Positions 3,862 to 14,130 of a stretch of DNA of 64,000 bases are shown piece by piece. The notes below the pieces were generated by a model. It was not told the origin of the DNA, did not search any database, and saw only the letters and a program-made list of their open reading frames with translations. The translations under genes and the position numbers were made by a program. Origin of the DNA: an uncultured delta proteobacterium (GTDB lineage Bacteria; Myxococcota; Myxococcia; Myxococcales; Anaeromyxobacteraceae); the NCBI GenBank assembly GCA_963814585.1, contig CAWFDF010000008.1, positions 352,001 to 416,000 of the forward strand, in the 5' to 3' direction. Position 1 is the stretch's first letter; each line of letters begins with the position of its first letter.

Positions 3862-4859
3862 CTGGGCGCCAACCTTCTCCACATCATCAGCACGCCGAGC
3901 ACCAGCAGCAGCGCCGCCGCCAGCGCGATGGGGTGGCCCGGCGTCTCCCGCACCCGCAGCAGGACGGCCGGGGCCAGCGAGGACTCGACCAGGAGGAGCG
4001 GCCGGCCGGTCCGGAGCGGCACCAGCTCGCCCGGCGCCATCCAGCGGGTCGGAGCTCCGCCCCCGGCCGGCTCCGCGCGCACCAGCGCCGCGAGCCGGCC
4101 GCGCGGCCGGGCGAAGCCCAGCACCTCGACCCGCTCCCCGCCGAGCACGCACCCCTGCTCCTGGGAGAGCGCGCAGGTCTCCTCGCCCGAGGCGAGCCGC
4201 GCCACCGGCACCTGCCCGAACTCGGAGAGCAGCGCCAGCCGGCCGCCCCAGCCGGCGGAGAGCGGCTGGTTGTAGCCGACCACGGTCGCCTCGACCCGGC
4301 CGGCCCCGTCGCGCAGCTCGATCGCGGCGCGCACCTCCCGCGGCATGCCGTTGGGCAGCTCCTCCACGGCGAACGACGCCAGCCTGGCCTCCCCGAACCC
4401 GGGAAGCGGCTGCCACCCCTCGGCCACCAGGTGGGAGCCACCCTCCCGGGAGAGGAAGCCGCCGGCCAGGTGGGCCAGCAGCGCCACCAGGAAGGCCAGG
4501 TGCAGCACCGCGGCGGCGTAGGCGCGCGGCACGCGGAGCCCGGCCCGCCACCGGGTCGTGACCGTCTCCCAGGTGGCCAGCAGCGTGTTGAGCGCGTAGA
4601 GCGCCGCCACCGGCACCAGCGCGTAGAGCCAGAGGTGGGCGAGATGGGGGCGCTCGAAGAAGGCGCCCAGGTCGTCGAGGCCGATGCCGGCCGAGGCGCC
4701 CTCGCGGGTGACCGCCATCACCACCGAGCCGATGGCCAGGAGGAGCACGGTGGCGAGGCCGCAGCAGACCCCTAGCCCCTGCGAGCGGAGCCACGCCCAG
4801 CGGCCGGGGCGCGCGGCCGGGGGCAGACCGAGCCCGACGAGCCCGTCAGCCGAAGGCAT
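3819..4859 (-). CDS. ResB/Ccs1-like cytochrome c biogenesis membrane protein
   Basis: Three N-terminal TM segments with LHLAFLVALLAHL, soluble domain containing YNQPL, C-terminal TM; adjacent to ccsA. Confidence 0.7.
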   Translation of the reverse strand: MPSADGLVGLGLPPAARPGRWAWLRSQGLGVCCGLATVLLLAIGSVVMAVTREGASAGIGLDDLGAFFERPHLAHLWLYALVPVAALYALNTLLATWETVTTRWRAGLRVPRAYAAAVLHLAFLVALLAHLAGGFLSREGGSHLVAEGWQPLPGFGEARLASFAVEELPNGMPREVRAAIELRDGAGRVEATVVGYNQPLSAGWGGRLALLSEFGQVPVARLASGEETCALSQEQGCVLGGERVEVLGFARPRGRLAALVRAEPAGGGAPTRWMAPGELVPLRTGRPLLLVESSLAPAVLLRVRETPGHPIALAAALLLVLGVLMMWRRLAPSRDGAGFWWRRRKT

Positions 4860-5631
4860 GGCTCGACCGCCCGAAGAAGAAGGAGGTGCCCACGTAGGCC
4901 ACGACCACCAGCCCCAGGCCGACGATGGCCAGGGCCGGCCGGACCCATGGCCGCGACGCCAGCGACGGCGTCAACCGCACGTGCACGGAGGTCGAGGCGT
5001 GGAACCAGAGGATGACCGACCAGACCACCTTGGGGTCCCAGAGGAACCAGGCGCCCCACGCCACCACGCCCCAGACGCCGCCGCAGACCATGGAGAGCGA
5101 CCAGAGGGCGAAGCCCCAGAGCGCGAGCCGATCGATGAGCGCCAGCCAGTCACCGCCCCGATCCCCGAACCAGGCCACGCCGGCGGCGGCGGCCGCGGTC
5201 CAGGTCCCGTAGGCCAGGAAGGAGAGCGGCACGTGGAGCGGGTACCAGACCGTCCGCATCAGCGGCGGCGGCCAGTGGAGCCCCTGCGGGAGGAGCAGGG
5301 CCGTGCCCATGGCGGCGCCCAGGACCGCCAGCAGCGGCAGCAGGTAGGCCCGCGCCGGCCGGAAGGCGACGACGCCGACCAGCGCCACCGCCAGCGCCGC
5401 GGCGGCGAAGGACTCCGTCTTGTTGGTGAGCGGCAGGAACCCGATGAGCAGCCCGCGCCAGAGCGACCAGGCCAGGTGGAGCGCGGCCCCGAGCGCCAGC
5501 GGCTGGCGGGCCCAGCGCGGCCGGACCACGGCGGCCAGCGTCGCCAGCAGGTAGCAGGCGGCGGCGCCCTGCAGCAGCAGCGCCAGCGCCGGCGGCGCCG
5601 GCGGCCCCATCGCGCCCGGAGGGCCCATCAC
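4846..5631 (-). CDS. ccsA: Cytochrome c assembly protein CcsA/ResC
   Basis: WWD domain [28 protein letters not shown], terminal His (SSHAF). Confidence 0.85.
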
Positions 5632-6135: not shown

Positions 6136-7296
6136 TCAGGGGCCACCTCGGAAGATCTGGAACCCGCCCCGGCCGACCTCCAGGTAGAAGCCGAAGGTGA
6201 AGCGGATCTCCCCGTTCGGCTCGACGATGCCGGGCGGCGGGTTGGCGAAGGGCTGCGCCCGCTTGAAGGCCTCGATGGTGGTCTTGTCGAGGAAGTCCAT
6301 GCCGCTGGTCTTCTTCACCACCACGTCCTTGAGGGCGCCGCTCGGATCGAGCGTCACGGAGAGGAGCGTGTAGCGATCGCGGTTGCCGAACATCGACCGA
6401 TCCGGATCGCGCTGGTCGAGGGCACGCTGCGGATTCCAGGTGGACGAGACCGCCTGCTTGATCCGGTTGAAGTAGGTCGCGTACTTCCACTCGCGGGTGT
6501 TGAGGAAGGTGCCGTCCCCATCCTCGACCCCGTCGAGCCGGTCCGGCGAGCCGCCGCCCGCCAGCCGCGCCAGCGTCTCCGGGGCCAGCGCCAGCCGCGG
6601 GTCGTACTGGCCTGGCCGGCGCTGCCCGCCCTCGCCACCGCCCGCGGCCCCCGTGGCGCGGTCGGGCTGCTGCGTCACCTTGGGGTCCCACGGGAGGGTC
6701 GGGATCTCCCCACCGGGAACCGGAGGCGGGCGCTCGCCGGCGGGGGCGGGCCGGTTCCTGGCCACCTGCCGGTTCTCACCGGCGCGGGCGCCGACGCGCC
6801 CCTCGACGAGCCTCTCCGACTTCCCATCCTGGCCGCCCTGGGCCTTGCTGACCGCCGCGCCCTGCCCCGCCGGTCCCGGAGGCGCCGCCGGCGCGCCCGG
6901 GCCGCGGAAGCGGGACCGGGTCTCCTTGTCGACCGAGTTGTCGCGGTCCGAGACGTACCTGGTGTCCTTGGGCGGCCTGGCGTTGGAGCTGGCGGTCTCG
7001 ACCACCTGCCCGGGGAACTTGCGCTGCTCCTCCGGCGACACCTCGGGAGGCGCCCGGGGAGACGCCACCGCCTTCGGATCCCGGACGGTCCGGTTGGCGT
7101 TCCAGTCCGAGGCGCTGAGCGCCGCCATGTCGATGGGGCGCACCTGCTTGACCGGTCCGAGCCCGAGCGAACCCGGATCGATCCTGGTCACCAGCAGCCA
7201 GTTGGCGAGCAGCGAGATGACCAGCGCCAGGGTGGCCCGGAGTCCAGGGCGATCCCGGCGCTTCCGGCGACGGAGGGTGGGTCCGAGGTGGGTCAT
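6136..7296 (-). CDS. TonB/TolA-like energy transducer with TonB C-terminal domain
   Basis: N-terminal TM, Pro/Gly-rich linker, C-terminal [17 protein letters not shown]....AF..AQPF.NPP. Confidence 0.8.
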
Positions 7297-12292: not shown

Positions 12293-12514
12293 TCACTTGT
12301 CGCGGTAGGTGATCCGCCCGCGGGTGAGGTCGTAGGGGGAGAGCTCGAGCTTGACGCGATCGCCCGGGATGATGCGGATGTGGAACTTCTTCATCTTGCC
12401 CGAGGCATAGGCGAGGACGATGGGCCCCTGATCGACCTTGACCCGGTACATGCCGCCGGCCAGGGCCTCGTCGACCATGCCCTGGACCTCGATGTTCGCT
12501 TCCTTCTCGCTCAC
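12293..12514 (-). CDS. infA: Translation initiation factor IF-1
   Basis: 73 aa; [30 protein letters not shown]. Confidence 0.95.
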
Positions 12515-12728: not shown

Positions 12729-13148
12729 TCACCCTCCCGACGCGGTGCGGAGCGACGCCGCCCGCTCGGCCACCGCCCCGTCGCCCTCGGCCAGGTGCTC
12801 GAGCAGCTCCAGCCCACGGTTCCTGTCCTCCGGGAACGGCAGGAGCCCCTCGGCCCGGGCCAGCTGGGCCTCCGGCGCCGCCGGCGCCAGGACGCCGGCC
12901 ACCTCGGCACAGAACCGGGCCGCCAGCGGCTGGCCGAGCGACCGGTGGACCCGCGCCAGCAGGATCCAGCCGCGTGCGTCCTTGGGGTTGGTCACCACCA
13001 ACCCCTCGAGGATGGTCCGGGCCGCCTCGGCGCGCCCGGCCGACAGCTCCACCTCGGCGATCCCGGCGATGGCTCCACCCAGCTCCTCGGTGAGCCCCAC
13101 CGCCTCGGCCAGCGTCGCCTCCTCCCGCCCGCTCGCGCGCGTCTCCAT
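12729..13148 (-). CDS. TPR protein, SycD/LcrH (class II T3SS chaperone)-like
   Basis: 139 aa, TPR-like helices [28 protein letters not shown]; starts 8 nt after the upstream gene. Confidence 0.6.
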
Positions 13149-13156
13149 GGCGGGCC

Positions 13157-14074
13157 TCACCGGACGTTGCCGACGATCGCCATGCGCGTGTCGTGCTGCG
13201 CGCGCAGGATGTTGCTGACCATCGCGAACATCTCCTTCTGCTTGTCGATCAGCCGCTGCAGCTCCATGAGCTGCACCTGCTCGTTCTTGGCGGTGGAGGA
13301 CGACGTGGCCGCCGCCGTGGACGACGCCCCGGACGTGCTCGCCCCGTCCGCCGCGGCGGCCGCCTCGCCGCCGCCCAGCTTCCCGTTCATGATGGCCGAG
13401 GCCAGGTCCGGGCCGGCCTTCAGGGCCAGGGGCGCCAGCGCCGGCATCCCCAGCGCCGTCACCGCGGCGGCCAGCACCGGCCCCGACACCTGCGTGATCA
13501 TCGCCTTGAGCTTGGCGTCGCCGACCAGCTGCGCCGCCAGGCCGAGCGGCGGGATCAGCGCCTTCAACGCACTCCAGACGCTGGTCGCGGCCGGCTTCTT
13601 GGCGCCGCTCGACGAGCTGGATCCCGCCGCTCCCGCGGCCGTCCCGCCCTTCATCTCGTTCATCTTCTTCAGCACCTCGTCGTCGTTCCGCCTGGCGACG
13701 GCGCACATGAACTGGAAGAGCTTCTCCTCCACCGACAGCTTCGGATCCTTCAAGAAGGCGAAGCCGTCGCTGGCGGCCGCCTTGGCGTAGCCGCTCGACG
13801 CCGACGTGGTCGTGCCTCCGGTGGTCCTGGCGGTGGTCTTGGTGGTGCTCTTGGCGCCGCTCGCGCCGCTGGCCTTGGCGCCCTTGGTGGCGGCGCCCTT
13901 GGCGCTGGCGGTGCCGGCGTCGAGCATGGCGGTGAGGGCGTCGGGGGTGCGGGCACTGGCCAGGCCCCCGGCCGCTCCGGGGGCCCGGCCGGTCGAGGGC
14001 TTCGAGGTGGTGGCCGGGTCGAGCCCGGCGGTGAGCGTGACCGCGGCGCTGGTGACGGAAGAGAGCAGGTCCAT
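13157..14074 (-). CDS. Putative type III-secreted translocator/filament-like protein
   Basis: 305 aa; RBS AGGAGG; S/T/A-rich N-terminus, central hydrophobic segment, C-terminus MFAMVSNILRAQHDTRMAIVGNVR. Confidence 0.6.
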   Translation of the reverse strand: MDLLSSVTSAAVTLTAGLDPATTSKPSTGRAPGAAGGLASARTPDALTAMLDAGTASAKGAATKGAKASGASGAKSTTKTTARTTGGTTTSASSGYAKAAASDGFAFLKDPKLSVEEKLFQFMCAVARRNDDEVLKKMNEMKGGTAAGAAGSSSSSGAKKPAATSVWSALKALIPPLGLAAQLVGDAKLKAMITQVSGPVLAAAVTALGMPALAPLALKAGPDLASAIMNGKLGGGEAAAAADGASTSGASSTAAATSSSTAKNEQVQLMELQRLIDKQKEMFAMVSNILRAQHDTRMAIVGNVR

Positions 14075-14114
14075 GTGGTTCCCTCCTGGGAAGTGGGCGT
14101 TGCCGACCCGCCAG

Positions 14115-14130
14115 AGCGCGAGCCGTGCCA
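14115..14130 (-). promoter_or_regulatory. Putative sigma-54 (-24/-12) promoter
   Basis: TGGCACGGCTCGCGCT: TGGCACG with GG-N10-GC spacing, about 40 nt upstream of ATG 14074; -12 box imperfect. Confidence 0.6.

Follow-up and report, generated by a model that had tools for sequence, protein, structure and literature searches.

A putative substrate-chaperone gene pair for the short type III secretion system of myxobacteria, with an SctF-like C-terminal helix

The window analysed here, a stretch of 64,000 nucleotides, holds a two-gene unit on the minus strand between infA and ruvX. Gene 1 codes for 305 amino acids and gene 2 for 139, with a gap of 8 nt between them, which agrees with the layout given by a first-pass annotation of the same DNA. 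The features of the locus are as follows.

12293..12514, minus strand: infA, downstream neighbour in the family of the source genome; context only
12729..13148, minus strand: gene 2, 139 aa, predicted LcrH/SycD-like TPR chaperone
13157..14074, minus strand: gene 1, 305 aa, putative and likely substrate of a T3SS (type III secretion system)
13160..13291, minus strand: C-terminal helix of gene 1 (residues 262-305), SctF/needle-like family, weak without Pfam seeding
13385..13585, minus strand: family-specific amphipathic/hydrophobic insert of gene 1 (residues 164-230), peak at 200-218 with KD19 1.98
13646..13765, minus strand: N-helix module of gene 1 (residues 104-143), also present in Myxococcales orthologues and predicted to pair with the C-helix
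14082..14087, minus strand: Shine-Dalgarno-like AGGAGG 5' of gene 1, read from the sequence and similar in homologous loci
14115..14130, minus strand: sigma-54-type -24/-12 motif (GG-N10-GC), conserved in family loci; rpoN is in the genome
14258..14671, plus strand: ruvX, divergent conserved neighbour; context only

The source genome (G000) measures 4.34 Mb and is 91.7% complete. GC3 is 0.97 for gene 1 and 0.95 for gene 2, and the neighbouring genes are alike. The gene 1 homologues that bear names are hypothetical proteins of Anaeromyxobacteraceae (134 matches, E <= 0.001). In a search of protein representatives at the same threshold, the best 150 of 795 matches were all close family members. 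A search for short homologues returned chiefly pieces of a paralogue family, to which the gene opening the T3SS operon (see below) belongs. In one metatranscriptome, short contigs from relatives and not from this organism cover parts of both genes (share 0.04), and one of them spans the junction between gene 1 and gene 2.

The pairing of the two genes is a stable trait. Gene 2 lies 3' of gene 1 in all 20 family loci; infA was seen in 18 and ruvX in 15 of them, the misses being mostly truncated loci. In other families, all 15 fetched loci carry a gene 1 orthologue followed by a chaperone gene, with ruvX or mltG divergent, and three of four further loci show the same arrangement. Judged by the complete gene calls, these orthologues have lengths of about 340-590 aa. 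A query with a gene 1 orthologue found 46 of the 57 genomes of family f6, with one match each. The cluster of orthologous chaperones includes ABF88185.1 of M. xanthus DK1622, annotated as TPR only. Given this wide conservation in the order, the module is ancestral, and the label of an orphan used earlier is wrong to that extent only.

Gene 2 had been described as a SycD-like TPR protein, and its whole length supports this. It matches TPR_19 (E 2e-9), and its best NCBIfam match is TIGR02552 (E 3e-7) with 30.2 bits, below the curated cut-off of 104.8 bits; one orthologous chaperone reaches 49.3 bits. A 33-row profile of the gene 2 family can be aligned to PcrH, AcrH and SycD from one end to the other, N-terminal helix included (positions 10-141, 4-140 and 9-142 of the 145 in the profile; E between 3e-12 and 9e-11). 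Generic TPR proteins outscore these three against the profile, over shorter stretches. A PDB sequence search with gene 2 alone gave weak matches, chiefly to TPR proteins. The complex of chaperone and substrate that had been suggested for modelling was predicted weakly for gene 2 with residues 100-305 of gene 1, with a score of 0.34 against 0.02 for the best control, contact agreement of at least 33% between runs and a partner pLDDT of at least 71. In a benchmark, 116 of 157 solved complexes attained the mark of this complex, as did 2 of 215 mismatches; scores of 0.60 or less comprised only 18 of the 157 solved complexes and both passing mismatches. Passages of PMC13466201 state that LcrH-type (class II) chaperones normally serve translocators and not tips, and that the TPR subunit of class III chaperones binds needle C-termini. 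Hence, the chaperone type cannot separate a tip from a translocator.

The proposed sigma-54 promoter remains putative, and its GG-N10-GC motif is conserved beyond chance. GGCAY-N7-GC stands 5' of gene 1 in 16 of the 17 family loci with upstream DNA (20 loci, three of them truncated upstream), and the 17th carries a one-base variant. The background amounts to 100 of 3809 called starts in the source genome (2.6%, 85-nt window). Of 29 short loci, 28 have the same motif ahead of the gene that opens the T3SS operon, and the remaining one is truncated; the motif also precedes gene 1 orthologues of other families in 13 of 15 loci (wider 260-nt window). At the sequence level, a sigma-54-type motif is therefore common to gene 1 and the T3SS operon, and rpoN was found in the source genome.

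The first-pass annotation had assumed a T3SS encoded elsewhere in the genome, and this is the case: sctJQRSTUV lie on contig C11 and sctLNO on contig C8. Profiles of SctV, SctJ, SctQ, SctR and SctS matched at C11:42976-51008. The operon runs from a 137-aa gene through a SctI-like gene (weak, PF17001 E 0.006), SctJ, a small ORF, SctQ, a FliO-like gene, SctR, SctS and sctT/sctU to SctV. The sctT/sctU genes read as broken frames (C11:45055-46870); rpoB and rpoC are broken alike (C8:118562-127051), so an assembly error (indels) is likely behind the breaks. A run of response regulator, rho, ligA and a neighbour, also with broken frames, occurs on two contigs (C11:29150-36283 and C4:80822-88404) and is probably an assembly duplication. 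On C8, SctN scores above the TIGR01026 cut-off, its flanking genes can be read, by position and sequence, as SctL and SctO, and this SctL matches a long-locus gene (E 3e-18). The sctL-sctN-sctO-like mini-operon (C8:114918-117249, L026) lies apart, 3' of rpoC; therefore, the short T3SS is scattered over at least three loci.

This T3SS is a short locus, presumably the one also called T3SS(2). A flagellar role was rejected: flagellin was not found in G000, and the single FHIPEP gene, at the end of the C11 operon, scores higher as SctV (578 bits) than as FlhA (501 bits). The system corresponds to the short Myxo locus that Abby and Rocha described (PMC3459982). According to passages of that work, the short non-flagellar T3SS of Cystobacterineae has the same export apparatus, SctJ, SctI-like gene, SctQ and ATPase, likewise comes without a secretin in the locus, and is vertically conserved. 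Two things differ from the published short system: the first gene of the operon and the unlinked gene 1 both end in a SctF-like helix, and the satellite brings an LcrH-like chaperone. The long locus (T3SS*) was not found in G000, which has one SctV and no RcpC. RcpC/CpaB, a marker of Tad pili, was not found in this 91.7% complete genome, and its TadBC-type matches fall solely in pilus and type II loci. In the accounts of PMC12075869 and PMC10433427, killing and lysis are the work of the long locus together with the Kil Tad pilus. The phenotype therefore cannot be transferred to the gene pair, and the link to contact-dependent killing drawn earlier is not supported for this genome, in which only the short locus was found.

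The distribution of gene 1 follows that of the short T3SS. Among 59 family genomes at least 90% complete, gene 1 occurs in 54 and sctJ in 46. Forty-five of the 54 also have sctJ, and the other nine, all fragmented assemblies, hold short-type sctV pieces, at 57-77% identity in eight and as a less clear partial match of 49% in G334 (the FlhA level is 42-45%). Four of the five gene-1-negative genomes have no sctJ, an FlhA-level match only, and no gene 1 beside ruvX. The fifth, G331, is uninformative, ruvX being lost in an assembly gap as well. In G308 and G336, neither gene remains between ruvX and infA. A gene-2-like gene stays by ruvX in G017 (L150) and G025 (L149), in which neither gene 1 nor the short T3SS was found. 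The co-losses come to about two events among kin, not four, and due to this kinship the co-occurrence carries no statistic.

The family alignment divides gene 1 into a variable S/T/A/G/K N-terminus, a helix (104-143), an insert (164-230) and the C-helix (262-305). The low-complexity N-terminus noted earlier is evident, with 70% S/T/A/G over residues 1-103, and so is the lack of a Sec-type signal, which a rough rule found in none of 120 sequences (gene 1 and 119 homologues). The hydrophobic and C-terminal stretches quoted earlier are both present. Gene 1 itself lies below every Pfam and NCBIfam cut-off. Its AlphaFold model is poor (pLDDT 51, pTM 0.24), with two helices visible and unreliable packing, and the Foldseek search that had been advised was uninformative, with no match at E <= 0.001. 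The orthologues retain both helices, about 20 residues apart and without the insert (hhalign 98.4%), and their helix pair is predicted by AlphaFold as an antiparallel hairpin (pLDDT 85). A test of whether the insert might be the N-terminal segment of the orthologues in permuted form gave 0 matches among 295 proteins, and the idea was rejected.

The C-terminus had been likened to those of needle subunits, and it does belong to a SctF-like helix family. A regular expression and three profiles located a needle-like helix at the C-terminus of 2 of the 38,139 six-frame ORFs of G000, namely gene 1 and the gene that opens the T3SS operon; the search for further proteins with this motif thus yielded one more ORF. 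This operon gene is the sole other match of gene 1 in the source genome (E 4.3e-6), and the two family profiles match at 97.8%. A bridging profile built from 30 PF09392 matches, none from the family of the source genome, retrieved exactly these two genes (E 1.9e-14 and 4.2e-13), and its reversed control gave no matches. Against the PDB, a 28-row bridging profile placed solved needle chains on top (7y6c_F 1.4e-10, MxiH 1.6e-7, PrgI 1e-6, YscF 6.6e-5), a strong match that is partly circular because the rows were picked with PF09392. The IpaD tip helix followed the needle chains as a weak match, and the profile matches the gene 1 family at 98.7%. The chain 7y6c_F, from a file labelled by its chaperone, is taken here as a needle peptide by our own reading. 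Without PF09392 seeding, one profile search had 7y6c_F as top match at only E 0.04, and another gave PrgI at E 1.4, flush with the terminus. PDB sequence searches with the whole-family, paralogue and orthologue hairpin profiles returned no T3SS protein.

Among 53 gene 1 homologues, PF09392 was matched by five (best E 0.005) and TIGR02105 by three (best E 0.023), all sub-threshold. Gene 1 has 305 aa against the 71 positions of the SctF model and fails the PF09392 and TIGR02105 cut-offs as a small whole protein. Across Myxococcota, 49 of 301 genomes gave PF09392 matches at E <= 0.01, four of them above the cut-off; none came from the 44 other genomes of family f1 or the 14 controls. All 30 fetched matches finish no more than six residues from the stop. 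A tblastn search of plasmids with a needle-like myxobacterial C-terminus found nothing. Taken as sequence evidence, these results make it probable that the C-helix of gene 1 is homologous to SctF.

In the injectisome tree, myxobacterial T3SSs branch first. In five genomes, 23 helix matches were placed: 17 within about 25 kb of sctV, five in the ruvX-linked satellite (ruvX neighbour checked for three of the five) and one unplaced. A small ORF with a SctF-like helix lies away from the T3SS loci and the ruvX satellite in G048 (C60:173100-173249). The first gene of short and long loci, just 5' of sctI, has the same C-helix, with weak HrpA matches (E 0.013-0.04). In the long (T3SS*) loci examined, a helix gene comes first, and two or three mutually identical genes of 72-74 aa that end in this helix lie among LcrH chaperones; six PF09392 matches fall inside 6 kb in G284. 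The small genes are candidates for needle or pilus subunits. The genes concerned are these.

G000 C11:50595-51008 (L033): first gene of the T3SS operon, short locus, SctF-like C-helix, 5' of sctI
L068:5720-6286, L070:11735-12178 and L153:3710-4279: first genes with the same helix in other loci
L069:4053-4271, 6400-6618 and 6833-7051: tandem 72-74 aa helix genes of G048
L154:2252-2476 and 4667-4891: tandem 72-74 aa helix genes of G149
L082 and L087: further loci with tandem 72-74 aa helix genes

Gene 1 and gene 2 very likely form a substrate-chaperone pair of the short T3SS. The two genes lie together, and the pair is tied to this system by co-occurrence with the short locus, by the sigma-54 motif and by a helix that gene 1 shares only with the first gene of the operon. 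The core of the earlier interpretation holds, and none of the three findings named there as refuting it emerged. The gene 1 product is best read as a secreted tip or filament subunit, with a probability of about 0.5, and it most likely works, by analogy, like a tip subunit of the Bsp22/EspA type. Passages of PMC12607632 describe the terminal helices of Bsp22 (Bordetella) and EspA (EPEC/EHEC) as a coiled coil that flanks a variable middle part able to accept insertions. Gene 1 appears to share this layout of N-helix, insert and C-helix, and the T3SS context. It differs in its hydrophobic insert, its long N-terminal extension, either disordered or NolX-like, and the lack of a significant sequence match: EspA or Bsp22 gave Atlas leads of 0.83-0.84 only, and PF03433 (EspA) had no match among 53 family members. 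Its chaperone is of the TPR type, and that of Bsp22/EspA filaments of the CesA type. Gene 1 resembles SctF (PrgI, MxiH, YscF) in the pattern of its C-terminal helix, which runs right up to the end of the protein, and differs in its length of 305 aa, its extra domains and scores under all cut-offs. It is not filed under SctF, EspA or SctE/SctB because it falls short of their defining cut-offs or motifs.

As a tip or filament subunit, gene 1 could act as follows. Sigma-54 would co-induce the satellite pair and the T3SS operon, and the LcrH-like TPR protein would keep the gene 1 product unpolymerised in the cytoplasm. The disordered S/T/A/G N-terminus may serve as the signal for export through SctRSTUV/SctN. 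The N-helix (104-143) and the C-helix (262-305) would then pair as a coiled coil like that of Bsp22/EspA and attach to a rod or needle made of SctI and the product of the operon first gene. The variable part would face outward as a target-contact domain, with the hydrophobic insert here and NolX/HrpF-like repeats elsewhere.

The strongest competitor, though unlikely, is a hydrophobic translocator (SctB/SctE-like) of the same T3SS, which would put residues 196-218 into the target membrane, with the C-helix only docking on the needle and gene 2 as a classical class II chaperone. As in SycD/YopBD, PcrH/PopBD and AcrH/AopB, an LcrH-like TPR chaperone gene adjoins the substrate gene (20 of 20 family loci and 15 of 15 in other families). 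The hydrophobic stretch is typical of the source family, with KD19 >= 1.6 in 100 of 119 homologues. The N-terminal region of orthologues resembles translocators of plant systems (HrpF/NolX/HrpK1), with weak matches to PF16937 (HrpK1/HrpF, E 1.3e-4), PF05819 (NolX, E 1.1e-3) and EF-hands, and orthologues map to an Atlas cluster that is 73% NolX (score 0.94). However, the proposed membrane-inserting segment is a single stretch interrupted by proline (KD19 1.98) that did not show up in orthologues of other families, where the best KD19 is 0.67-1.34. The core conserved across the order is the helix pair and not the hydrophobic part. In contrast to class II pairs, gene 1 has a SctF-like end and no P/VxLxxP anchor (3 of 120 sequences overall), an anchor that is not universal among translocators according to passages of PMC13466201, and SseC (PF04888) matched 1 of 53 homologues at E 0.038.

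Less probable still is a role confined to the periplasm, in which the gene 1 product would cap a short internal rod, make it longer, or serve as scaffold or signal, with no surface appendage. No secretin was found in the T3SS loci of G000; its three secretins belong to clusters of pilus, type II and foreign-looking character. The position by mltG/ruvX is fixed, and passages of Abby and Rocha allow for such a periplasmic structure (PMC3459982). Lineage-specific cargo domains, NolX/HrpF-like or hydrophobic, suggest an outside target instead, and the tandem 72-74 aa copies of long loci suggest a bulk polymer. The third secretin lies with type II/pilus-like genes at C13:142500-152600 (L155), where the mean GC is 49% against 73% for the genome; this stretch is a foreign island or mis-binned DNA.

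A pair that acts as a cytoplasmic regulator or is unrelated to secretion, its helix being no more than a generic hairpin, is improbable: fold searches with the orthologue hairpin did return generic coiled coils only (Z up to 10.4, and 9.9 for the IpaB N-terminal region, level with ESCRT-III and prefoldin), and the chaperone gene outlives T3SS loss in two genomes (G017, G025), but the paralogy with the operon first gene, the shared promoter motif, the co-loss and the location of 22 of 23 helix matches in T3SS loci or the ruvX satellite speak against it.

Passages of Abby and Rocha (PMC3459982) hold that Myxo T3SSs lost SctF and lack tip and translocon, and T3SS* is called needle-less in passages of several papers (PMC12075869, PMC10433427, PMC10849154, PMC12428579, PMC11509652). 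In the literature searched, no publication on these helix genes was found, no substrate is named for myxobacterial T3SSs and no function is given for the short locus. A tentative wider reading, which falls somewhat short of even odds, is that SctF was not lost and that these T3SSs keep a SctF-like axial family for a secretin-independent needle or pilus. This family would comprise the first gene of each locus, the tandem 72-74 aa genes and the ruvX-linked chaperoned subunit, the last perhaps a one-chain tip-translocator that joins a needle/tip coiled coil to an exchangeable target-contact domain, either NolX/HrpF-like or hydrophobic. If the helix is genuinely that of SctF, both the needle loss proposed in the literature and the idea that Kil pilus tips stand in for the needle need to be revisited. 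With candidate substrates, a chaperone and a shared putative promoter now named, the export question is open to direct experiment, and M. xanthus DK1622 has an orthologous chaperone.

The M. xanthus T3SS* (long locus, mxan_2434-2464) belongs to the same order, and the loci of its relatives have LcrH chaperones and genes with the same C-helix; T3SS* and the Kil Tad pilus were looked for and not found in G000. In one long locus (G048, L069:4608-5690), a DUF1521 protein (E 1.7e-12) lies between the needle-like genes and an LcrH chaperone.
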